From assembly GCA_000091205.1 (NCBI GenBank), contig AP006502.2: 64,000 bases of DNA. One strand, given 5' to 3'. Positions 1 to 55,129 of the stretch are shown here, in pieces. The stretch comes from Cyanidioschyzon merolae (lineage: Eukaryota). Numbering within the stretch: the stretch's first letter is position 1; every line of letters starts with the position of its first letter. The notes under the pieces were generated by a model. The model was not told the DNA's origin. It saw only the letters and a list, made by a program, of their open reading frames with translations, and made no database searches. The translations under genes were made by a program, and so were the position numbers.

Positions 1-653
1 GGCGTCGAAAAAAAGGACTACGCCAGCTCCAACTACAAGAACGTACGAGGAGTGCACAAGGGGTTTCGTTACGATACCTGTAGATGAGTTCCGAATGTCG
101 TATACACACCATGAGCTGGGGTGTACACTCCAGAGTGTCGACATGGAAAAGTGCCAGCGGAGCCCCGAGGATATACAAAAGTACGCAGCGCTGACGGAAG
201 AGCAAATGGAGAGGGAAGCGAAAGTTCGAGGATTGCTTGCACTGGTGAGTACAGCTACTAACGGCAAGAAACGTATGGTGTTTGTGAACCGGAACTTTAA
301 TGCCGTTATCAGTATAAGGAGATGTGCGGTGATGGAGACGAGACCTCCGAAGTTGAGAGAATTTTATGGGGCAACCTCTCAAGGTGGAACTATATGAGAA
401 AAAGTTGAAACCAGTAGTGGGTGGCCATTCCAAAAAAGCTGGGAGGCGTCTGCACTTTAGCTGGAGACGTTCTGTCTAGGGCGCGTCGGTCGCCACTACT
501 GTACGCCGCTGAAGGCAACGTTTTTCTTTCGAAAGGCGTTCGCTGGAGGTGTCCTGCACTTGAAACTGTGGTTCAAGGACACACGGGTGGCTGGTTCCCG
601 AAACTCGCGTCCAACACTACCGACGAGCGACGCCGTGCTCCCCGAACGAAGCG

Positions 654-1073
654 ATGAAACACCGCATAAACCTGCGTAAGCTCGGTCGAGACTCAGCCCA
701 CCGCTTAGCTCTCTTAAGAAATCTTGTTTCTAGTCTGATTGAGCACGAGAGCATAGAAACGACCGTGGCGAAAGCGAAGGAGTTGCGTCGCGTTGCGGAT
801 AAAATGGTAACGCTTGGAAAGCGTGGCGACGGTCTGTCCCGAATCCGAGCTCTTGGTTTCGTTCGTGGACCGCATCTTGTGCAAAAACTGTTTCGTACGC
901 TTGCGGAGCGATATCGTGAACGTAACGGTGGCTATACTCGAGTGATGCGATCGAGGAACCGACGAGGCGACAACGCCCCAATGGCTATCGTTGAACTCGT
1001 TGACTCGCCGAAGGGAGTAATACGCCGGCCACTGGAACACTACCAACGTTCAGAGCAGCGGCAATCAGTGTAA
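654..1073 (+). CDS. Bacterial-type (organellar) ribosomal protein bL17
   Basis: The 139-aa ORF MKHRINLRKLGRDSAHRLALLRNLVSSLIEHESIETTVAKAKELRRVADKMVTLGKRG...GGYTRVMRSRNRRGDNAPMAIVELVD aligns end-to-end with the bL17 family, including the basic N-terminus, the GGYTR(I/V) motif and the GDNAPMA-IELVD signature. The in-frame upstream sequence hits a stop at 561, so no presequence lies in this frame. Confidence 0.9.
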   Translation: MKHRINLRKLGRDSAHRLALLRNLVSSLIEHESIETTVAKAKELRRVADKMVTLGKRGDGLSRIRALGFVRGPHLVQKLFRTLAERYRERNGGYTRVMRSRNRRGDNAPMAIVELVDSPKGVIRRPLEHYQRSEQRQSV

Positions 1074-1872
1074 CACAAACCATTGATCGGTGCATGAGAC
1101 CATGAAACCGCGGGCATGGGAATCTAAAGCGCGGAAGCAAATGGCCATGCCGGTGGCGGCACCTGTGAAATGAAGTTACAGTGATGAATTGGAACGCTGT
1201 ACCCAGCAGGAGAGGTATTCCTGCCCTGTCATCGCTCAAAATTGAGAGCCTCAAAGCTGGTACTCGATGCTCTAGAGTAGAGGGTGTTTTCACTGCTGGG
1301 ATTAACATGGACAGCTTCATTGCCGGGTCAGTTGGTCCACTCTGTGCACTCTCGGCCTGGGCCGTATAAGGGCTTCGAACCGTTTTATGCTGCGGAAAGG
1401 TTGACGCCATCCATAACGCGGCAGCCGTCCACCGTAAAGGATCGCTTCGCGGTAGCGCCGTGATTATGAGGCCGCCACTCCTAGAACTGAGCTCCAAAGC
1501 GCTCGGCAACGCCACCTGCTTATGCATGTGTACGCGTTGCACGTACCGGATCGCCAGCACGAGCTGCATGCTGTCTGGTGTGCTTTCACGTAATGAGCTT
1601 GGAAGACTAGAATCCTGCGTTATCACGGAGGCATGCGCGGCACGCGGACCTCGACACGCTGCACCTCGAACGCGTTTGCGTCTGACAAGTGTTGGGCCAC
1701 GCTGAGGACTTCCGTTCCAATCTCGTAAATCCGTGTCGAATGTGGTAAAACAGCCAACGGATCGCAGAGAGTCTCAACTAAGTGAGCTGGATATTACAAA
1801 AGAGGCTGCTTCCGGGGACACTATTCGAGAATCTCAAAAGTGGCATGTCTTTCTGACGTAATTTACCGTCAG

Positions 1873-2914
1873 TCACATCCTCCCCACGCTTGGGTACTGC
1901 GATGTTACGATATTCGTGTTCCCAGGGTCCGCGTCAACGATCAAGTCGTTATCTTGCGCCTTCTGCGTCGCAGGATCCGCCTCTTCCTTTTCTTCTTGCG
2001 GCACCGCGCCAACGACAAGGTCGTCATCCCGCACTTTCTGTGTCGCAGGATCCGCTTCCTTCTCATCTTCATGCTTCGTCACGGGGAAAGCCGAAGGCAC
2101 GATAGGGCGATCCGCCTTCACCCGCCGATAGTGGACACACGTGCCTACTACACCGGTTTCGATCATCCCCGTGAATATCTTCTGCTTGCTCGTATTGAGA
2201 CGTTTGAAATCGAATATATTCCTCCAGTACGCCTCCCGGGTTTCGCCGGTGAACTCTGTCTTCCGTACATTGAACTCCGGACTGATCTCCTTGAAGATGC
2301 CGTAAAGGATTCTCGAGTCGATAGTCACGAAATCTGACTTGATGTTGCACATTGGAACCACGTTGAAGCGCTTCCCAATTAGGACAGCCTTCCGTCTCTC
2401 CCACTCTTCATTTTTTCCCTCTCACCTTCATCTCCGCCTTGCGTTCGAGTTCTTGGTCCAGAAACACGAAATACCGCAGGGCGAGGCGATAGTATCTTTC
2501 CTTATCTTTCTTCAACTCTGATATCTTTGCTGCCGGATTCGCCAGCCCCAGTACCGCACGGTGCTCTTGTGTAGCCGCACGGATCACAAAAGCTTCATTC
2601 GTGCTCCTGTGTCACTTCTTCTTGTCGACAAATTCGATCTGACCTTCATGTCGGCAATCGTTCGTGATGCCATTGATAATCGCCCATATCCCTCTACCAG
2701 AGATGCCCGGGTGAGCTGCAAACACGGCGCTTATCATAAAACCTTCGAGGCTCACTGTCGAATGGTTCTTCAGGTTCGTGAGGTACTTCATCGCCCCGTC
2801 AGAGTGTATTCTGGGACTAGGAGCGGGCACGCTGTGTCTGGGCATCGCCCTGCTCAGGTTGTAATCCTGGTATATCGATTCGCGCCGCCGCATAGAGGAC
2901 GTCTGCTTGCCCAT
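1873..2914 (-). CDS. Hypothetical protein with an N-terminal MGxxxS (myristoylation-like) motif. Interrupted by one in-frame TGA and one predicted 88-nt GT-AG intron
   Basis: Three minus-strand coding segments have codon usage like the confirmed genes. Segment 1 (2914..2615) reads MGKQTSSMRRRESIYQDYNL...GIWAIINGITNDCRHEGQIEFVDKKK. A TGA lies at 2614..2612. Segment 2 continues in the same frame (2611..2426): HRSTNEAFVIRAATQEHRAVLGLANPAAKISELKKDKERYYRLALRYFVFLDQELERKAEMK. A consensus donor AAG|GTGAGA sits at 2425 and an acceptor AG at 2338 restores phase 0 into segment 3 (2337..1873): SDFVTIDSRILYGIFKEISPEFNVRKTEF...YWRNIFDFKRL.... No family assignment. Confidence 0.4.
1931..2080. repeat. 75-bp tandem duplication (2 copies) within the coding sequence of the minus-strand gene above
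   Basis: The motif aacga(t/c)caag..gtcgcaggatccgc recurs at 1936 and 2011, a period of 75 bp. On the minus strand it encodes two 25-aa units, ...EADPATQKVRDDDLVVGAVP / EADPATQKAQDNDLIVDADP. Confidence 0.7.
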
Positions 2915-3469
2915 TTTTAGGCTCCCAGAATGATTACGTACTCCGACTCCGTATCTGGTGAAGCGTTCTGCGATATGACGCCCTCAGTGGCATGGCAAAG
3001 CCGTTCTCTCTCTGTGCAGCATCTGCATCAGCGGTTTAGGCGCTATTGCGGGTTGCAGCGCTGCAGGCACTCGGCGCACGATGGAACGTACAGAACGACC
3101 CCCAAGTCCGAGAGGAAGTACGGGTACTCGAACTAGAACTTGGAGCTTCAAATAAAGAGTGATTTCCAGAAAGTTACTACCCATCCATCACGCAACCTGG
3201 GATCCATGGTCCATATACACGTTTCGTCATCGAAAAAAGACAGATCATTGTGGGCGCAGACTGCCGTGCGCGCTGCCTCGTAGCGCCGCGCCCGGCGCGA
3301 CGCTACGCCTCCGCCACCGAAGGCCATCGGGGCGCAGGCGCCACCGCAGAAGCAAGCCTCCGCCGATCGACTGCCTCAGGTCAACGCGATGCAGCTTTCG
3401 TAGTGTTTTGAGCGGAGCGCTCGCATCCTGTGTAGGTTTCTTTGGCTTTGCACTCGCCTACATAAGGCT

Positions 3470-6400
3470 ATGCCTGGTCAACCTGCCATAAGAGTTCATG
3501 ACACGCTAGGATTCGCCGTCAATGTACGATTCCAGACGGATGTGCTCGGAACGCAGCTTGCAACGCGTGACACAACGTTCGTGCACGTGGCGCTGCAACA
3601 GCAACGGCGACAACGAGCGTATCCGAACCGGTCTGGACGACGACACGTTCACCAGAGCGAACAGCGACTCGACGTGCTCCATCGCAATTCAGCATGGCGT
3701 CCGCAAGGTACAGTTCAACGGAGTTCGTCTCGCATGGAGTTGTGGCTCTCGACGGACGAGGGTGAGGTCTTCGGGCCGGCGCCGGCGTTCTCTGTGAAAA
3801 CAAAGGCCGCACCCCGTACAGAAGTTCCCGGAAAAACGGCATCCGGGAGCACTGCGATGTTGTCGGCCTCGAGGGAACAGGGCTCTGGAGACGGTCGGAC
3901 ACGCGTCGACCGTCGACGCCTCAAGTTGCTCTTTCAGCTGGCCTGCGATGCGGAGTCGAAAGGCCGTTTCGCCGAGGCAGCAAGCCTTGCTCGCCAGTGT
4001 CTTGAACTGGACGAGTATGATGCTCGCTCCTGGTTGTTGCTGGCACGTCTCGAAGCGAGCCTCGTACATGCGGACGATCGCAGCTGCACAGTCAGTGTCG
4101 TCAACGGCACGGAGGGCATCCATGTCTGCACAAGCCACCAGCGTGCACGTAACACTTACCGTCAGGGCGTACTCATGTGCCCCGATTCAGTGCATCTGTT
4201 ACATGCTTGGGCGATGTTCGAATATCGACTCGGGGAGATCGAAACTGCACGGGAGCTCTTCCGCCGCGGTCTTGCTCTAGATCCGGCGAACGCCTACATT
4301 TACCACTCGTGGGGACTGATGGAGTGCCGACGTGGAGGCGTCGAGAAGGCCCAGCAACTCTATGTTGAAGCATCTGCATGCTGCTTGAATGATGCGATTT
4401 GTAGCGCCTGGGCCGAACTCGAGGCACGTGGCGGCCGAATGCGTCTCGCTCGCTGCATTTTCGAGCTCGGTCTGGTAATGCTGCTTCGTGATTTCGCGGA
4501 CACGCTGCATCTTACGGGTTCGGATACCGAAGAGCACGATCCAAATCGAGAAGCGGTCCGAGATATGCCGTACGGCTCGCTTCGCAGTCTCGTCCGGGTG
4601 CTGGTTGCGGAGCACTTGAGGGAGAAGGAACGCCCCCCAGTTTCTGGCTTGTGTGGGAAAGAGCGTGACATGGCGTGCCTATCACCGAACGCTGATGCCC
4701 GGCCTACGCCCGGAGAACGCAGTGAGCGAGCGCTCCGAGCCTTACTTTTGGATTGGTTATCTTGGTATAGAGACGGGCGCAACCCGAATCTGATCCATAT
4801 TCGTCTCACGGTACGCACGCGATCGCGCAGAGGTGATCGATATCAGCTGGCTGCGGACCATTGTGTGCAGTATGCAGACTCGGAGCTCACCCATGGGTCC
4901 ATCACGCGAACACGGGAAATCCTACAGTGGGCACTGGATCTTGATCCCACCAATGTGAAAGTCCTGCTGGCGTGCGCTCGTCTTGATGCACAACGTGGCG
5001 CCCATGAGCGGGCTCGCTCTCTGTTTCGGGCGGCGGAAAGCGCGCTCCGAAAGCGAGGAACTGCAGTTGAACGCATAGACGATGCGCAGAGTGCGAGTCA
5101 CCGAGTTGGTGTCTCTCTCTATACATCCTGGGCAACGATGGAGATGAATTTGAGCAGGCCGGTCGAAGCAAATGCCGTGCTTGAACGAGGGAATGAACGC
5201 TTCCCCCGGAACCACGCCCTCTACCAAACCTGGGCACTAGTGCAGGAAAAGCGGGGACAGCCGGATGCAGCCCGCCAACTCTTGGAACAATCCGTTCGCT
5301 TGCGACCGAACGCGCCTGCCTATGTCGCATGGGCTCTGCTGGAGGAGCGCGAGGGCCATTTGGACACGGCACGTGAGCTCTTCGAAGCCGCTCTGCAAGT
5401 GGATCCGAGCCACAGCGCCACCTACAATGCTTATGGTCGTCTCGAGGCTCGTGCCGGGGACCTCGAAAAAGCTCGCCGTGTTTTTCTTCGTGGTCTGCAT
5501 GTCCAACAGGCACCCTGCATCTATCATGGATTCGCCCTCGTCGAGCTACGCTACGGGAATGGTATCCGACGAGCAGAGGAGATCCTTTTGGAAGGAATCG
5601 CGCAGAAAAGCGACAGAAGTATGTTTCTATGGCACACACTAGGTGCTCTCGCTTTTCAACAGAAAAAGTATGAAAAAGCGCGAGAGATTTTCGCCCAGGC
5701 GCTTCAGATCTACCCCAGCAATAGTCGATTGCTTCTCGGAGCGGCGCTCTCGTACGCAGCAGAGGCAACGGCTTTAGACGCGGAGAGGCCGCGCCAGTTA
5801 TTTCGGCGCGCGCTACAGGAGGATTCCTTTCACGGACATGCATGGCAATGCTGGGGAGTATTCGAGAGTCGCCTTGGCAACGTGGATGCTGCCCGGTTAC
5901 TCTTTGAACGCGGCGTTGAGCGATGTCCGTTCCACGTACCACTTTGGCAGGCGTACGCGCTGCTGGAGAGCACCGCAGGGAATATCCGCAAAGCTCGCAT
6001 CCTCTTTGAACGCGGCATGCAGCTAGAAAGCGACCACGTTCATCTCTTGAATGCTTACGCATGTATGGAAGCACGAGTCGGCAACTATCAAAAGGCACAG
6101 TGTTTACTGGAACGGGCGCTGCGCATCGATCCTGGGCATGGTGCAACCTGGAACGCGCGTGCCTTGCTGGAGCTGCGCAGAGGGAACCAGCACGGCGCTC
6201 GCGAGGTGCTAGAGGAGGGCCTCGGAAAGGACGCCAACCACGCGCCGCTGTACCGAACCTATGCGCGTCTGGAGTTAGCGCTTGGCAACGTTGAACGAGC
6301 ACGGCTGCTCATTGAACAGGGCCTTGTCAGGGATGCCAGCGATTCCGGCCTGATCCAGCTGCGCACTGATTTGCAGAAGCCGTCAGCAGTTTTCACAGCC

Positions 6401-6583
6401 GGCGCTTTTGAACGGTGGGCAGATCTATCACCGCGAGAAAGCGCCGGAAGCATGTCCGTACTTGCACGTCTTCAAGCAGAACTGTCCGAAGCATCAATCT
6501 CAACGACAGATTTTGATCTTTTCGCCATTCAGTCTGTGGACGATGCGCTGCAAGAGGGCCATTCCTCGATCGATGCACGCTAG
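3470..6583 (+). CDS. HAT/TPR-repeat protein, HCF107/Mbb1-like (probable organellar RNA stabilisation/processing factor). The true start is probably an internal Met near 3734
   Basis: There are at least 12 consecutive half-a-TPR units with the pattern [WY]..[WY]A.LE.R.GN...AR.LF.R.L..DP.H. Examples: PAYVAWALLEEREGHLDTARELFEAALQVDPSH, HAWQCWGVFESRLGNVDAARLLFERGVERCP, PLWQAYALLESTAGNIRKARILFERGMQLES, ATWNARALLELRRGNQHGAREVLEEGL. The first ~90 codons of the ORF are Arg-rich and low-complexity. MELWLSTDEG.. at 3734 or MLSASREQ.. at 3857 are more plausible starts. Confidence 0.75.
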   Translation: MPGQPAIRVHDTLGFAVNVRFQTDVLGTQLATRDTTFVHVALQQQRRQRAYPNRSGRRHVHQSEQRLDVLHRNSAWRPQGTVQRSSSRMELWLSTDEGEVFGPAPAFSVKTKAAPRTEVPGKTASGSTAMLSASREQGSGDGRTRVDRRRLKLLFQLACDAESKGRFAEAASLARQCLELDEYDARSWLLLARLEASLVHADDRSCTVSVVNGTEGIHVCTSHQRARNTYRQGVLMCPDSVHLLHAWAMFEYRLGEIETARELFRRGLALDPANAYIYHSWGLMECRRGGVEKAQQLYVEASACCLNDAICSAWAELEARGGRMRLARCIFELGLVMLLRDFADTLHLTGSDTEEHDPNREAVRDMPYGSLRSLVRVLVAEHLREKERPPVSGLCGKERDMACLSPNADARPTPGERSERALRALLLDWLSWYRDGRNPNLIHIRLTVRTRSRRGDRYQLAADHCVQYADSELTHGSITRTREILQWALDLDPTNVKVLLACARLDAQRGAHERARSLFRAAESALRKRGTAVERIDDAQSASHRVGVSLYTSWATMEMNLSRPVEANAVLERGNERFPRNHALYQTWALVQEKRGQPDAARQLLEQSVRLRPNAPAYVAWALLEEREGHLDTARELFEAALQVDPSHSATYNAYGRLEARAGDLEKARRVFLRGLHVQQAPCIYHGFALVELRYGNGIRRAEEILLEGIAQKSDRSMFLWHTLGALAFQQKKYEKAREIFAQALQIYPSNSRLLLGAALSYAAEATALDAERPRQLFRRALQEDSFHGHAWQCWGVFESRLGNVDAARLLFERGVERCPFHVPLWQAYALLESTAGNIRKARILFERGMQLESDHVHLLNAYACMEARVGNYQKAQCLLERALRIDPGHGATWNARALLELRRGNQHGAREVLEEGLGKDANHAPLYRTYARLELALGNVERARLLIEQGLVRDASDSGLIQLRTDLQKPSAVFTAGAFERWADLSPRESAGSMSVLARLQAELSEASISTTDFDLFAIQSVDDALQEGHSSIDAR

Positions 6584-15551: not shown

Positions 15552-18367
15552 ACGCTCCGGCCTTTCGGAATTGCGGAACGCTACCACGCCAGGGCTATTC
15601 AGAGGACGGGAATCCTATTCCATTTTTCCTGACCACTGTTCTCCTTCCTTCGGAACGCTTCCGCATTTCGGCGCAATGTCCTCATTGAATTCTACTACGA
15701 TGGCCCCGAAAGTTTGCTCGACACAATGCCGCTGGACGTTCTGCAGGTAAGTGAAATTTCTGAATGCTCACCGAGGCGCTCAAGTCTCGGTGCGGAACGT
15801 GCTTGCGCACACTGTCGCTGGTGTGATTTCACCACAGCAGGCGTCGCGTCTTCGACTGCATCGCCATCTGGCGTTGGGTCAACGTAGCGTCAACCATCCT
15901 CTTGCATACGACTCTGTTTCATGCTCTACATCTGTATTTGTTTCAGCGTGCTCCCGTGCTCCCGATACGTTTTTGTGGTCCCGGAAGCATCGACGGGGAT
16001 CGCACGGCATCGATGCTTGCCCACGATGGACGCTCTTGTCGATAGAGCAGGCGTGCAGCCATTGCGCGCTGCAGCATCTCCACCGTCATAGTTTACCACC
16101 GAATGACGCGTCTTGACTGTTATTTGCTTTCTCAACACGTTGAAGAACACAGCGACTGCATGCTTCTTGCGTTTGCACAACCGATACCGTTTGCGACCCC
16201 AGCGCTATCTAACGTTCTGCTGCCGAGGCTTGTCCGTGTACGAAACTTGGGCGCCCATGAACTCTCTCAAGCGCAGAATCCCTTCAATCAGTTGCCGTTT
16301 TTCTGCACCAGTGAGGTGAAGGTGCAACGCCTATGGGATGCGCCACGTGAAGCGCTCGAGAATGACCCAAATACGTTTTTGATTGTTGAAGTTAGTCTGA
16401 TTACTTTTGGCACCTGCGGTGCAGATGTTCCGTTCGCAGTCGTTCCGCGGCGCCGCGTTATGGTATTCTAGAAAGCGTGTGTACAAATCTAGGATCCTAA
16501 AATCGGACCGCGGTTTGTCTTGTATCCCAAGCATTCGTTGTGTTGGCCCACGAAGATATGATCAAAGCATTCCTGTGCATCGATGGCGACTAACAGCTCT
16601 CTGTCCGGAACTCATTCGAATTGTTTTTTGGCGAGGCGCATCAAGGCCAGGGAAGCTAGTCGGACTTCCTCGGAGTAATACGCTACGCGATCCGGTATGG
16701 TGTCCAGCATCTCTGTCCCTTTGGTGGAGCCTCCCCGTTGATGAATCCCTGTTCGGAGGCCCTGACACGGGTTGCAGACGGGTCGCTACAGTCAGACAGG
16801 TTCTTCTTCCTATCCCGCGTCGTCTTAGTTTTTCAAGGATCTTTATGTTCTTTCTCCGGTGGTTTCTTCGCGCTCTTCCCAACATGGTAGAGTCTCATTG
16901 GATATGGTCGCTATCCTCCATACCCGTTTTCCTACGGATGCAGATGCGCTGGTTAGATTATTGCACTGAAACTCGTTTTGGGTATGCAAGCATCTACAAG
17001 TGCTCCAGTGCCTTTTCGTCACTCTCTCTGTCGCGAACACGCGCGTGGACAGAAACGCCTTTGCGCTCTGTTACGTGCACAAGCAGAAAAGTTAGAGACA
17101 AGTTCAGGGCTGGTGAAGGCAGAGAACGGCAAGTCGAAGAACGGCACCACGGACACGATCGATTTGTCCATTCGCCCGTGTGCTTGAGACGAGGTTTCTA
17201 AAGCAGAGAAGACGCCTGCGTATCTGTTAGACCCTAAAGAATAGGTTTGGACAAAGATCACCGCATTACCAATTTCAGATGCGTATTCCCTGATGAATTT
17301 TAAGTGCCAGAGAATGACAATTCCCATGCGCAGGACAAAAGCACGGAGCTAGGAGGAGCGAAGCATAAGATGTTTAACGATCTCGCCCGTTTGGCGATTT
17401 ACACAGCGAACACATCATTGAATCGCCGCTCATGCTGATATTGCCGTCCTTCGCGTTTGTCTCCTCTTTATGAACAGCGGCATATGGGTACTCTTTGAGC
17501 ATGCATGTACAGGGGGTCTACGATTCCTCCCGAATGGCGTTTCACCCAGTGAGAGGAACACTCGTGTCTCCCCGTGGCGAGCATTCGCGTTTCAGTACCA
17601 CGTCGATCGCGTGTTACTCAACACGCGCGACGGTTTCCCATGGATTGCTTCTTTTCCCTTGTTCATACGAGTCACTTCGTTGCGGTTCGCAGCAGCGGTA
17701 CGGAAATTTCACATCGAGTGACGTATTGTGTAGTATTGCTTACAGAGCGAATCGAGTGAATGAATCGACAAAGAGGCAGTCGTTTAGACAAATTTTTTAC
17801 GAGTTTCGTTTCGGAAGCAATACATTACGAATTCAGTCTGTGAGAACGGTTGTTTCCCTATCTGCTAACCGTTGAATGGCTGACTCGTACGAGTACAGCT
17901 CTTTCCCGTGAGCTAGCAACGAAATCATTTAGACTTGACACTATGCATCACGAATCTGCGTATTGCAATCCTTTTGTTGAATACTCGCGAAAAAAACAAA
18001 CAACAATGAAAACGGCGCGTTCGAACAGGTGTTCCATCATTCACAGTTTTGAGTACGCTACTGCAGCAAAGGCGCATGTTCGAACGTCTAGTCCCGAGGT
18101 GCACGTTCGGTGCTGTTCGCACGAATTCCAGCGCAACCGAAGAGCCACACGAAAGAAGCAACGCATGCTCCATGAGCCGCCTTGGTATGCAGGCTCTCGC
18201 CAACTGATGCACCGTCAGACTATGGCCGGCATTGACGCTGCCATGAGTCGTAGCTGTTCAAGGCGCTTGGCGGGAACGAGGCTGCGATGCGTGCGCATCA
18301 AGTCCGTGCATTCACGCGCAACGTCGCATGTATTCGTTGACCTGCGTGCTGCTGCGAACTTTCCCAG

Positions 18368-23470: not shown

Positions 23471-23639
23471 GTCCCGTACAAGTAGAGGAGCGTAAATGTT
23501 TTACGACAATGTAGGGTAAAATCCGTATCCACACGCAGACGCCTCTCAGCCGTTTGGACTGGCGGCTTACTGGGGGCTTCAGCTTCTATTCCTGGAACTC
23601 GTGCACTCAGTTCCGTATGGTGCTGTGGCAGCTCTCCAT

Positions 23640-24700
23640 ACCTTTCAATTGTCGGTGGGCTCCGCTTCCTCCTCTCCATCAAGGCCTTCTGAACTATACA
23701 CCACAGCTCAGCTCTTGGATGTTCAGTTCTTTAAAATGAACGCACTTGTTTATGGCCCTACTAGAAGACCTTTCGGGAGGGAAAGGACCTGCGGAAGAAA
23801 GAGGAAACGCTCCTTTGTGTGCTACCGTGAGCAGAAAGCTTCAGCGACTGTCCCAGTGGAGCGATGATTATGTTTCACAACTGAAAACGCTGTTTTGATC
23901 GGGTTGAACTGCGGAGTCTACGGCGGACTGAAAATCAGATTTACCCGATAGAATCAGCAAAATCTCAAACGCAACGGGAATCCTGAAATGCCACATTATC
24001 GAATAGAAGGACGTCACCAGATGTCAGGCGAAAAGTCTTTCATGATTCGGCAAAGTGTTTGGAGCTGTTGTATGAACCTTCTCTACGCGCGAATCAGCGG
24101 CTGCCACTTGAATTCCCAGCAGCCAGAACAGATGATGATGTCGTTGCTCTCTTCGGGCTCGTTTGCACATGAAACGAGCTCCCTCTTCACGAATACCCAT
24201 CAACGCTCCGATCGTCTCGTCCGAAGGACGTCCCATCGACTGAAAAACGAACCTAGGTTCCTGTGCCTCACACCGATCGCGACGTTTCGGGAAAGCTGTT
24301 GTTGCGACTTCTATGGAAGATGGTGGTGCGTGGAGCTGCACATTTTCTGGCGACTGGATCCCAGCGTTTTCAGGACAATGCGAACAAGCTGTTGAGATGC
24401 AGTCACGCCCGTGGTGGCTGTTATCGTTACTTTTGCTCTCCGTCAGGTGATCAACGAGTCGTCTTATAGCATTGACCGCTAGCAGTCTATGACAATACCA
24501 GGATTTTGACACGGAGCACATCTACTTGTTTCCTTCTTTCAGTATTCCTCAATCATCAGAGTCGTGTGGTATGACTTACCTGAAGGAGGCATGCAGCGCT
24601 CCTTGCACTGTTCGATAAAGCATCTATCCTACACGTAATTGCTCTACGATCTATTCGGTGCGTTGCACAGCGATTCTGATCGATTATGATGCACTGCAGC
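23640..24700. repeat. Dispersed repeat family 2, copy A (~1 kb), ~70-75% identical to 55130..56165
   Basis: The two copies are collinear and in the same orientation. Example aligned blocks: agaatcagcaaaatctcaaacgcaacgggaatcctgaaatgccacattatcgaatagaagg vs agaatcggcaaaagctcgaaagaaatcgaaatggtgaaatatcacgttgtccagtagaaag. A second block: caggtgatcaacgagtcgtcttatagcattgaccgctagcagtc vs aaggtgatcaatgggtctttttatagcactgaccgcaagcagtc. Single-nucleotide indels between copies break every reading frame. Confidence 0.8.
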
Positions 24701-44385: not shown

Positions 44386-45292
44386 GCGCTTCGCTTCGCG
44401 CGACGCTTTGCTCGATCGCGGCGCCTTGCCGGTTGCGATCCCGAGGGCGCTGCTGCCGCTCGTCGCTTACAGGTAACACACAGCGATGATTTTTCCGACG
44501 ACAACGCGTTTGTATGGACCATAGATTCCAGATTGCGGGACAGATGGGTATTCATAATCGAAAATGCGTCGACGGTGATGCACTTTACCTCCAAGTTCGA
44601 TTAATTATACTTCCTATCGGATGAACTAGTCGTGTCGTACCTTGTATCGTGCGGCGATTGCCCGCCTTGCTGCACTCGTCGTAGCGCTTGAACCGTTGGG
44701 TAGATGCATCACAGAGACAGAACGGCTTTGGCATACCTCGGCGGGCGTCGGTTCGAGGAATGCTTGAACTGACACGGGGTCAGAGTTTATCACCATGCTG
44801 GGAGCCGGGAAGCCGCGTAGACAGCCCTACTGCTTGCGGCAGCGCAAAGCGATATTATGGGAGTCCACTGCGACCATATCGACGCCCAGACGCAACCCTG
44901 AGCGCCCCCGATCCGGGAATAAACTGTGTTTCGGACGAGCTGCTCGGATCTCAGTAAAGCACTCGGCGCTAGGTGGAGCATGAAGCAAGAGTCTGGCAGA
45001 CTCGTCCGACTCGCGGGACCTTCCGCCTCGAAGGTCAACTTTCGACAATACGGAAACCTTTTCCTCTTTTTAACCCTAACCGTAAAGGGGCAAAGATATT
45101 GTTATGTCGTTGCTAGTTAGTGCTTCGTTTCTCTGCTTTTTTCTGCAGCGCGCTTGGTACTTTGCACCGAATCGATGGCGTTTGCGCCGCCTGTGCCAAT
45201 CGCGGGAAGCGCCTCAGGCCAGACGTGGCTTGCGCTAGGACTTCAGCTCAGGAGCTCGAGCGACCCCGGAGCGGAATGCTCGTCTCATACGC

Positions 45293-54208: not shown

Positions 54209-55129
54209 AGCGTGCGTTCTGCAGCAACCACGAACGCTTCAGCACGTCATATCCGTACACGGGCGCACCTGGAACGGAGCACCGGTATCGGGAACGCCAC
54301 TGGAAGAGTTCCCAAAGCCAGAACAACCTCAATGCAGCGTGAAAATTATCAGTTACGCTGTGCTACGGTACGTAGCGCAGGGCACTTCCAGTGCCTACGA
54401 AATGTAGCGGTTGCCGCGTTGCTGCCTGCACGCAACCTCCCAAAGAATACCCAGAGCGTTGCACGAAGACCCTAAGGTGCTTTCGATGAAGTCCTACTGA
54501 ACACACGCAAGAGCTCCCGCGTCACTGGCCGTGCCTCGGAGTTCCGGCGACTTGTGAATCAACGATTGACGGAGGGCGCTCGGTTCTCGGCGGTATTGCA
54601 AAGTCGCCAGCCACACATATCCAAATATAGGTGCCTTTTAAAAATGATGATAGAAGCAATACGTTCGATTTTCGAGTGAGTGAACGCATTCGCTGCTTGC
54701 AGGTGCAATTCATAGTCAGCAAACCGTAAAACGTTCTATGACCGTGGTGGGTATACATATACATACCCAGTCGCAGACGCCTCCCAGGCTTGTTTGCCCA
54801 GACGACTGCTATCGGCTTCAGTCTCTCCTCGCACACTTTGACCATGAGAGTCTGCACCACAGAGTCGGATCGTGTAAGCTCCTCGGGTATCGTCTTCAGC
54901 ACTGCACATCTTCTGATATTGACGGCGGCGTTAAGGTCTCGGTTCACGAATTGCTTGCGTTTCTTGCCTCAGGTGCAACTAACCGATGCAAGGATTCCTC
55001 GGACGCGTGCCCTCTGTGGTACCACAGTATTGCCACCGTCCTGTCGAGCAAACACCATTCTCGTCCATCGCCCTTCCTATGCTCCTTAGTGATTTGCTCT
55101 TCTTTGCTTGGTGGACGACGAGATGCGGA

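Follow-up and report, generated by a model that had tools for sequence, protein, structure and literature searches.

A discontinuous reading frame in Cyanidioschyzon merolae interpreted as a decayed copy of the Fanzor1 transposon CMe-1A

The locus and its open frames

The DNA analysed here, referred to as the window, is a stretch of 64,000 nucleotides from Cyanidioschyzon merolae (contig AP006502.2). The studied locus lies in an unannotated 2.4-kb gap on the 1.62-Mb chromosome of C. merolae 10D. The gap is bounded by the gene for a mitochondrial ribosomal protein L17 precursor (654-1073, plus strand; exact match to BAM83433 of strain 10D) and by a gene annotated as 'similar to psbB mRNA maturation factor Mbb1' (3470-6583, plus strand; exact match to BAM83434 of the same strain). 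The open reading frames of the locus itself were not found in the protein collection by exact look-up, and thus are not annotated in the reference. The first annotation of C. merolae included only 27 introns and the organism lacks the U1 snRNP (PMC4829280), which explains why the window appears to be free of introns.

The minus strand of the gap contains an open reading frame of 100 amino acids (2914..2612), beginning MGKQTSS and terminated by a TGA at 2614-2612. Beyond this codon the frame remains open until a second TGA at 2410-2408, and a third open frame extends over 2421..1873. The sequence AAG/GTGAGA occurs at 2425 and an AG at 2339-2338, and joining the two restores the frame. A preliminary description of this DNA had drawn attention to the TGA with coding potential beyond it, to the GTGAGA and AG, and to the third frame, all of which are present as described. 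The 25-residue tandem duplication that it reported is also real, and was recovered by TRF as a 75-bp period present in 1.9 copies (1929-2074). Two interpretations were offered, one a spliced gene combined with readthrough, selenocysteine or a sequencing error at the TGA, and the other a young pseudogene. A homology search with the conceptual 312-aa product, which had been suggested as a check, proved informative and returned 185 homologous proteins (E down to 5e-127), all of them unnamed and most of them from hot-spring metagenomes.

Correspondence to CMe-1A and the lesions of the copy

One Fanzor1 family, CMe-1A, has been described in C. merolae (Bao & Jurka 2013, Mobile DNA 4:12, PMC3627910). 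The consensus measures 3169 bp, and the roughly 150 copies are each approximately 80% identical to it. CMe-1A encodes a Fanzor1 protein of 734 aa, lacks TIRs and has its 5' 635 bp in common with the non-autonomous element TE-N2_CMe (PMC3627910). The consensus DNA was taken from the supplement of the same paper and aligned to the window by blastn and by pairwise alignment. The open reading frame of the consensus spans 906-3107 and encodes 734 residues. Two blocks of the window aligned, both on the minus strand. Consensus 1-422 corresponds to window 3232-2803 with 77% identity and 12 gaps, base 1 of the consensus falling exactly at 3232, and consensus 1399-2301 corresponds to window 2799-1825 with 87% nucleotide identity. 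The consensus-guided translation of the second block has 230 of 300 residues identical to the CMe-1 Fanzor1 consensus and is broken by one stop and two frameshifts; it also contains one insertion of 25 aa. The coding-like signal noticed in the three segments is therefore real, and is that of a former coding sequence.

On this evidence, the minus strand of window 3232-1825 is read as a dead copy of CMe-1A, the Fanzor1-carrying element of C. merolae, that decayed after its insertion (probability roughly 0.97); nothing in it would call for splicing or readthrough. The copy resembles CMe-1A in the homology that starts at the exact 5' terminus and covers Fanzor1 codons ~166-465, in a divergence that fits that of the reported copies (~80%), and in the lack of TIRs. 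Unlike the consensus, it is without positions ~423-1398 and 2302-3169, its frame is interrupted by a nonsense codon and shifted twice, and it has one 75-bp repeat unit more. A complete element of ~3.17 kb with an intact 734-aa frame was not found at the locus; what is there is a fragmentary member of the family, a relic. Because of its deletions, nonsense codon and frameshifts, the relic cannot encode Fanzor1. Its 5' part (3232-2803) is the module common to CMe-1A and the ~635-bp TE-N2_CMe; however, the relic runs on into Fanzor1 coding sequence, which identifies CMe-1A itself, and not TE-N2_CMe, as its source. Furthermore, six environmental contigs part from the window just past 3242, immediately outside the 5' end of the element, and this divergence marks where the element ends.

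The preliminary suggestion of a young pseudogene was essentially right but needs correcting on two points. The locus is a pseudogene, although it is a CMe-1A copy and not a decayed host gene. Judged from divergence from the consensus, which is ~13% in the part derived from the reading frame and ~23% in the 5' part, it is not young. CMe-1A was already described in 2013, and the locus is accordingly of a known kind, ordinary genomic debris. Most likely, it makes no functional product. It offers a precisely dissected example of the decay of a Fanzor1 element in the very small genome of C. merolae, and does not change what is known of Fanzor biology, splicing or recoding.

The 5' terminal part of the relic (2803..3232, minus strand; consensus 1-422) is non-coding in the element and contains the ATG (2914-2912) from which the 100-aa frame starts. 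The region of this ATG is non-coding because the Fanzor1 frame begins only at consensus 906. At 2799..2803 the two alignment blocks abut, and the intervening ~976 bp (consensus ~423-1398) are gone. This deletion took with it the true Fanzor1 start codon at consensus 906 and the first ~165 codons, and by chance brought codon ~166 of Fanzor1 into frame with the ATG upstream (...PRIHSD/GAMKYLTNLKNH...). The myristoylation-like MGKQTSS terminus is consequently spurious, since its ATG lies in the transposon 5' non-coding region and does not mark a conserved protein N-terminus. The 312-aa product is an accidental ATG in the non-coding 5' end of the element followed by three out-of-frame pieces of the old reading frame.

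The remnant of the Fanzor1 frame occupies 1825..2799 on the minus strand (consensus 1399-2301, codons ~166-465; 87% identity) and represents a REC/WED-like region and the RuvC-I strand only. When the homologous protein P0007 was used as the tblastn query, the window matched its residues 24-350 in three frame segments and nothing after residue 350. The in-frame TGA (2612..2614) is a nonsense substitution in a serine codon: the consensus reads AAG ACA TCA CGC where the window reads AAG AAG TGA CAC, and at the protein level KKK-stop-HRSTNE in the window faces KKTSRRSTNE or KKASNESTNE in the homologues. Further downstream, between 2422 and 2421, 2 bp have been deleted, turning consensus GAG CTG AGT GAG GAA into AAG GTG A--G AGG GAA. 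The GTGAGA proposed as a donor derives from consensus CTGAGTGAG and was created by a C-to-G change.

The 75-bp tandem repeat lies just upstream of the RuvC-I motif and appears as a 75-bp insertion relative to the consensus. The number of units varies in the family; the consensus has one and other members two to five, with four to five in P0001 and P0002. In the AF2 model described below, the 25-aa repeat region is a low-confidence linker (residues 260-289). The RuvC-I motif DADPG (1921..1935) is the only catalytic motif left. A conserved TDG motif upstream of it has been mutated, IETDGVA having become IETGVVG. A second frameshift results from a 1-bp deletion at 1904..1905 (consensus ATAACCATC, window GTAA-CATC). 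The third open frame stops soon after it (...IVTSQYPSVGRM followed by a stop), and homology goes on in another frame as IAVPKRGEDVTDGKLRQKDMPLLRFS. At 1825..1832, corresponding to consensus ~2301 of 3169, homology to both the consensus and L001 stops. The adjoining 751-bp spacer is unique within the window. Gone beyond the truncation are the RuvC-II glutamate, a Zn-finger-like region, the RuvC-III aspartate and the 3' end with the would-be omega RNA site. The relic thus has the first aspartate of the D-E-D triad, while the glutamate and the second aspartate are past the truncation.

These lesions are observed in the alignment; as to their order, we infer the following. The ~976-bp internal deletion, with loss of the real start codon and ~165 codons, may have come first, and the change of the serine codon to TGA would have followed. 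The 2-bp and 1-bp deletions would then have shifted the frame twice, and the 75-bp unit would have been duplicated after that. In the last step the element would have come to end at consensus 2301, with the loss of its 3' end and of two catalytic motifs out of three.

Splicing, recoding, sequencing error and co-option

In Cyanidiales introns, the 5' splice site is GUAAGU and the branch site ACUAACC is nearly invariant (preprint 10.64898/2026.05.17.725761). The candidate 5' splice site, which had been called textbook, is GUGAGA and differs from GUAAGU at two positions. No ACTAACC was found in the 88 nt between donor and acceptor even when up to two mismatches were allowed, and RNA folding of the 88 nt revealed nothing unusual (z = 0.01). 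Moreover, both open frames can be joined in phase by 66 different GT..AG pairs of 25-400 nt, and the donor at 2425 by itself takes part in 10 of these; the pair 2425/2338 is therefore not significant. Homologues of the locus encode protein throughout the interval (...AEMKLSEENNEEWERRKAFLMGKRFNLVPMCNIKSHF...), and three of them, P0004, P0005 and P0007 (~590 aa), read unbroken across it as ...ELERKAEMKLSEENNEEWERRKAFLMGKRFNLVPMCNIKSHFVTVDSRILYGI.... The window carries the same residues as these long homologues (NEEWERRKAVLIGKRFNVVPMCNIKSDF) in a different frame, and the 88 nt match consensus codons ...LSEEKNEESERRKAALMGKRFNVVPLCNIK. The proposed intron (2338..2425, minus strand) is former coding sequence, ...MELSEEKNEESERRKAALMGKRFNVVPLCNIK... 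in the consensus, that is read out of frame owing to the 2-bp deletion. In sum, a GT...AG pair that restores the frame was found at the locus, the GUAAGU and ACUAACC signals were not, and the interval is part of the coding sequence of homologues. Judging from the alignments, the 2-bp deletion accounts for the change of frame, and nothing appears to be spliced or recoded at the relic. Programmed frameshifting was also considered and was dismissed, the consensus and the intact copies having one continuous reading frame.

The possibility was considered that the locus is nevertheless a genuine host gene with a single GT-AG intron of 88 nt and a TGA that is read through or decoded as selenocysteine. 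The GT and AG are indeed present and restore the frame. C. merolae has the machinery for selenocysteine and a tRNA-Sec with no known selenoprotein, so that an unrecognised gene containing TGA is conceivable in principle (Lobanov 2007, PMC2375036; also PMC6627142), and for this reason the selenocysteine idea deserved to be checked. However, consensus and homologues have coding sequence across the interval, its residues being conserved in the other frame as NEEWERRKAVLIGKRFNVVPMCNIK, and splicing would remove 29 conserved residues from a transcript with a non-consensus 5' splice site and no ACUAACC branch site. The TGA aligns with Ser/TCA and not with cysteine. The SECIS-like element that had been envisaged was not found either, as no Rfam family, the SECIS models included, matched at E <= 1 on either strand of window 1-3600. 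Selenocysteine was accordingly rejected, given the lack of a SECIS, a homologous codon that specifies serine and not Cys/Sec, and a gene that is broken elsewhere too. Even a spliced and read-through product would meet another frameshift and would be without two catalytic motifs. The spliced, recoded gene offered as one alternative in the preliminary description is thus refuted, and such a host gene has hardly any probability. A related reading accepts the relic as such, supposes that it is transcribed and that GT(2425)...AG(2338) is truly used, and takes the pair as a newborn intron that bridges the 2-bp deletion to give a truncated, REC-only Fanzor product. If true, this would be the 'intronisation' of transposon coding sequence in a genome that has only a few dozen introns and lacks the U1 snRNP. 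This reading is very unlikely, as there is no branch site, the TGA still stands upstream of the pair, and another frameshift follows it.

It could also be argued that the TGA and the frameshifts are errors of sequencing or assembly in the reference and that the real locus has an intact frame; the 2-bp deletion does adjoin an A-run, a classic site of such errors. However, the lesions recur in other assemblies. Ten independent metagenome contigs were compared, all carrying the same L17 gene, from JGI samples 3300050376, 3300050379, 3300052695, 3300050748, 3300050370, 3300002182 and 3300005861 and ENA assemblies ERZ27247228 and ERZ27249350. Where they match the window, nine of the contigs are 99.2-99.6% identical to it and the tenth, L006, is 97.4% identical. 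The identical TGA was found in nine independent assemblies, and the 2-bp deletion in all ten contigs including L006. Eight contigs are arranged like the window (L002, L004-L008, L010 and L011), and these share the 75-bp duplication and the 1-bp deletion as well. All contigs that reach the 3' truncation are truncated at the same point. The lesions are therefore real, sequencing error is excluded as their source, and the chance that the reference is wrong is negligible. L006, which has TCA in place of the TGA and no internal deletion, was tried as a candidate for the ancestral locus and rejected. It differs from the window only in 2500-2800 (~18%, compared with ~1% elsewhere) and has identical flanks; it is a mosaic with another CMe-1A copy or a chimeric assembly. 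A codon-position test based on L006 was dropped.

The same contigs bear on whether the relic was co-opted, as a REC-only Fanzor fragment, as peptides of 100, 59 and 162 aa, as a regulatory or antisense RNA acting against active CMe-1A, or as a promoter or terminator of its neighbours. The relic is kept in all sampled strains and lies 240 bp upstream of the divergently oriented Mbb1-like gene, and its three open reading frames were called by prokaryote-style gene callers in the metagenome contigs. However, retention among strains that are more than 99% identical is uninformative on selection, and the relic shows no sign of constraint, its divergence among the strains being double that of the neighbouring spacer. 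Over seven contigs together, differences from the window amount to 0.62% in the part of the relic derived from the reading frame, 0.56% in its 5' part, 0.30% in the unique spacer and 0.03% in the L17 coding sequence. Differences from the consensus are distributed nearly evenly over the codon positions (34:34:47, p = 0.23). Additionally, the open reading frames of the relic are missing from the reference annotation, and the start of the first is an accident of deletion. Co-option is highly improbable.

The dead CMe-1A copy also carries a warning. In a genome with few introns, a transposon pseudogene that has suffered a frameshift can pass as a 'spliced gene', because a GT..AG pair that restores the phase is nearly always on hand, as the 66 such pairs at this locus illustrate. 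Comparison with the consensus of the repeat family settles such cases at once.

Family assignment and other CMe-1A pieces in the window

The TnpB-like nuclease Fanzor1 occurs in eukaryotes and has a RuvC domain, and its solved relatives cut DNA guided by omega RNA. Scans of the conceptual product and its close homologues with Pfam and NCBIfam gave no match. The assignment to PF26935 (DUF8286) is a precomputed one, to a family outside the Pfam version scanned, and sub-threshold matches to PF07282 occurred in two of ten relatives. A profile built from close paralogues only (A1) produced a spurious match to angiogenin in the PDB (E 0.2), which was discarded, and an AF2 model from 52 close paralogues had a pLDDT of 40 and was not used. 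An exhaustive HMM search recovered 1511 relatives at E <= 0.001 among 50%-identity representatives. P0007 was then aligned with 58 diverse full-length relatives, 25-40% identical (alignment A3). In A3, D314 of the DPG motif and E486 of DEFRT are invariant and D555 of RDxNAA is nearly so, together forming the RuvC triad.

When the A3 profile was searched against the PDB, the only matches were to solved Fanzor1 proteins: Parasitella PpFz (9cf0, 1.2e-19), Spizellomyces SpuFz (8gkh, 4.3e-13) and Guillardia GtFz (9cer, 1e-5). The AF2 model of P0007 made with A3 reached a pLDDT of 83 and a pTM of 0.78, and the seven best Foldseek matches to it in the PDB were Fanzor1 structures (E 4e-13 to 2e-9; TM ~0.6 for SpuFz). 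Furthermore, a green-algal profile constructed from six Fanzor1 proteins in the Bao & Jurka 2013 supplement matched the CMe-1 consensus at 7.8e-15, with the TDG, DPG, DEFRTS and RDxNAA motifs aligned. Profile and fold searches agree that the family of the relic is Fanzor1, and this holds for the family and not for the relic alone. The longest open reading frame of the relic had no significant match to the green-algal profile (E 0.65). The relic itself is therefore placed in the family by its nucleotide match to the CMe-1A consensus and not by its own protein signal.

The solved Fanzor1 proteins (SpuFz1, 8gkh and 9ceu-9cez; PpFz, 9cf0-9cf3; GtFz, 9cer-9cet) resemble the family of the relic in profile, in fold and in the D-E-D RuvC residues. 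However, their identity to it is only 14-16%, and the window copy keeps the RuvC-I aspartate only. This residue, the second D of the relic's DADPG, is the one invariant in A3 (D314), and the motif aligns with GvDPG of the green-algal Fanzor1 proteins. As the 3' end of the relic is missing, no omega RNA is expected from it. Bacterial TnpB (IS200/IS605, IS607) and Cas12 belong to the same superfamily of RuvC-type nucleases and gave weak fold matches that ranked behind the Fanzor structures (TnpB 8h1j and Cas12 variants, E ~0.02-0.1). They differ in that the family of the relic is too distant for the NCBIfam and Pfam models, resides in a eukaryotic host and has a long N-terminal extension.

Other pieces of CMe-1A occur in the window. 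The 3' end of another copy lies on the plus strand at 9-538, just upstream of the L17 gene, and extends up to the exact end of the consensus. RNA folding of the CMe-1A 3' end at window 380-545 was not significant (z = -1.35). A TE-N2_CMe-like 5' module is present at 44496-45144 on the plus strand (consensus 1-641, 80%), and older CMe-1A relics were found at 55004-54773, 23710-23587 and ~16270-15929.

In two of the environmental contigs, L003 and L009, which come from different projects, the L17 segment is reversed relative to Mbb1. Here the relic contributes its 5' part and the other copy its 3' part, and the two are fused around the 75-bp repeat, where their positions are homologous. At the point of fusion the two copies are only ~80% identical, so that an assembly artefact induced by the repeat is unlikely. 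The reversed L17 segment may reflect an inversion among natural strains, with two Fanzor relics in inverted orientation at its breakpoints.

Apparent rearrangement around the L17 gene

Upstream of the L17 gene, the plus strand carries the 3' end of another CMe-1A copy (window 9-538; consensus 2635-3169, 87%), in the opposite orientation to the relic, the decayed CMe-1A copy between the L17 and Mbb1-like genes. This second copy extends to the very last base of the consensus, stopping 115 bp short of the L17 start codon, and codes for the RuvC-II/III part (…DEFRTSYTHHELGC…NRNFNAVISIRRC…). In the environmental contig L002, its counterpart begins at consensus position 1945 and adjoins a third, inverted fragment (consensus 2262-3145) that lies to the left of the window. 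The omega RNAs of Fanzors are usually found in the 3' terminal region of the element, which in CMe-1A would be the part held by the 9-538 copy. The fold of window 380-545, within this copy, was not significant (z = -1.35).

An apparent inversion polymorphism of a segment of about 2.2 kb carrying L17 was found by comparing window 1-5919 with the environmental contigs L003 (1-6470) and L009 (1622-5197), the inverted arrangement being present in two independent assemblies (JGI 3300005861 and ENA ERZ27249350). In both, the reverse complement of window 2057-5919 runs into sequence from beyond the left edge of the window, after which comes window 1-2123. The 5' part of the relic, including the TGA and the 2-bp deletion, is fused to the 3' part of the 9-538 copy. 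The fusion joins homologous positions of the two copies and lies at the 75-bp repeat (consensus ~2125-2135). Because the relic and the 9-538 copy are only about 80% identical at the fusion point, the inversion looks like a real recombination or an ancestral arrangement rather than an assembly artefact.

Differences between 10D and the environmental contigs

Six other environmental contigs (L004, L005, L007, L008, L010 and L011) match window 1-3242 at 99.2-99.5% and diverge completely just past the 5' end of the relic (boundary 3232-3242). Their tails had no match anywhere in the 64-kb window. 10D and the strains behind the six contigs therefore differ structurally, with the breakpoint at the transposon terminus.

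Contig L006 carries a divergent relic (L006:1536-3800, the counterpart of window 1825-2800 and of sequence past it) within flanks identical to the window in the L17 coding sequence (420/420) and at 99.7% in the spacer. Across window 2500-2800 the L006 relic differs by about 18%; it reads TCA instead of TGA and does not have the 976-bp internal deletion. It is a mosaic with another CMe-1A copy, produced by gene conversion or by chimeric assembly.

C. merolae has kept SBP2, EFsec, SecS, SPS2 and tRNA-Sec, and no selenoprotein was found in it (PMC2375036); PSTK was reported missing by a later survey (PMC6627142). The TGA of the relic is no answer to this selenocysteine machinery without a known selenoprotein.

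The 25-residue repeat and other Fanzor1 sequences

The 25-residue unit (…KHEDEKEADPATQKVQDNDLVVGA…; window 1929-2074) directly precedes the DPG motif of RuvC-I, and its number varies family-wide from 1 to about 5 among CMe-1A copies (P0001, P0002, P0004, P0030). The repeat region is predicted to be a disordered linker, with pLDDT below 50 at residues 260-289 of the modelled family protein P0007.

Of CMe-1A, the 650-bp plus-strand stretch at 44496-45144 has just the 5' module (80% identity to consensus 1-641) and, following the description of Bao & Jurka (2013), is a non-autonomous element of the TE-N2_CMe type. Older, more diverged Fanzor1-like relics lie on the minus strand at 54522-55022, 23515-23730 and 15929-16270. 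In tblastn they share 31-59% protein identity with the Fanzor1 family, and their nucleotide sequences are 70-71% identical to the CMe-1A consensus. The open reading frame at 54522-54947 starts with MNRDLNAAVNIRRCAVL, the RuvC-III motif.
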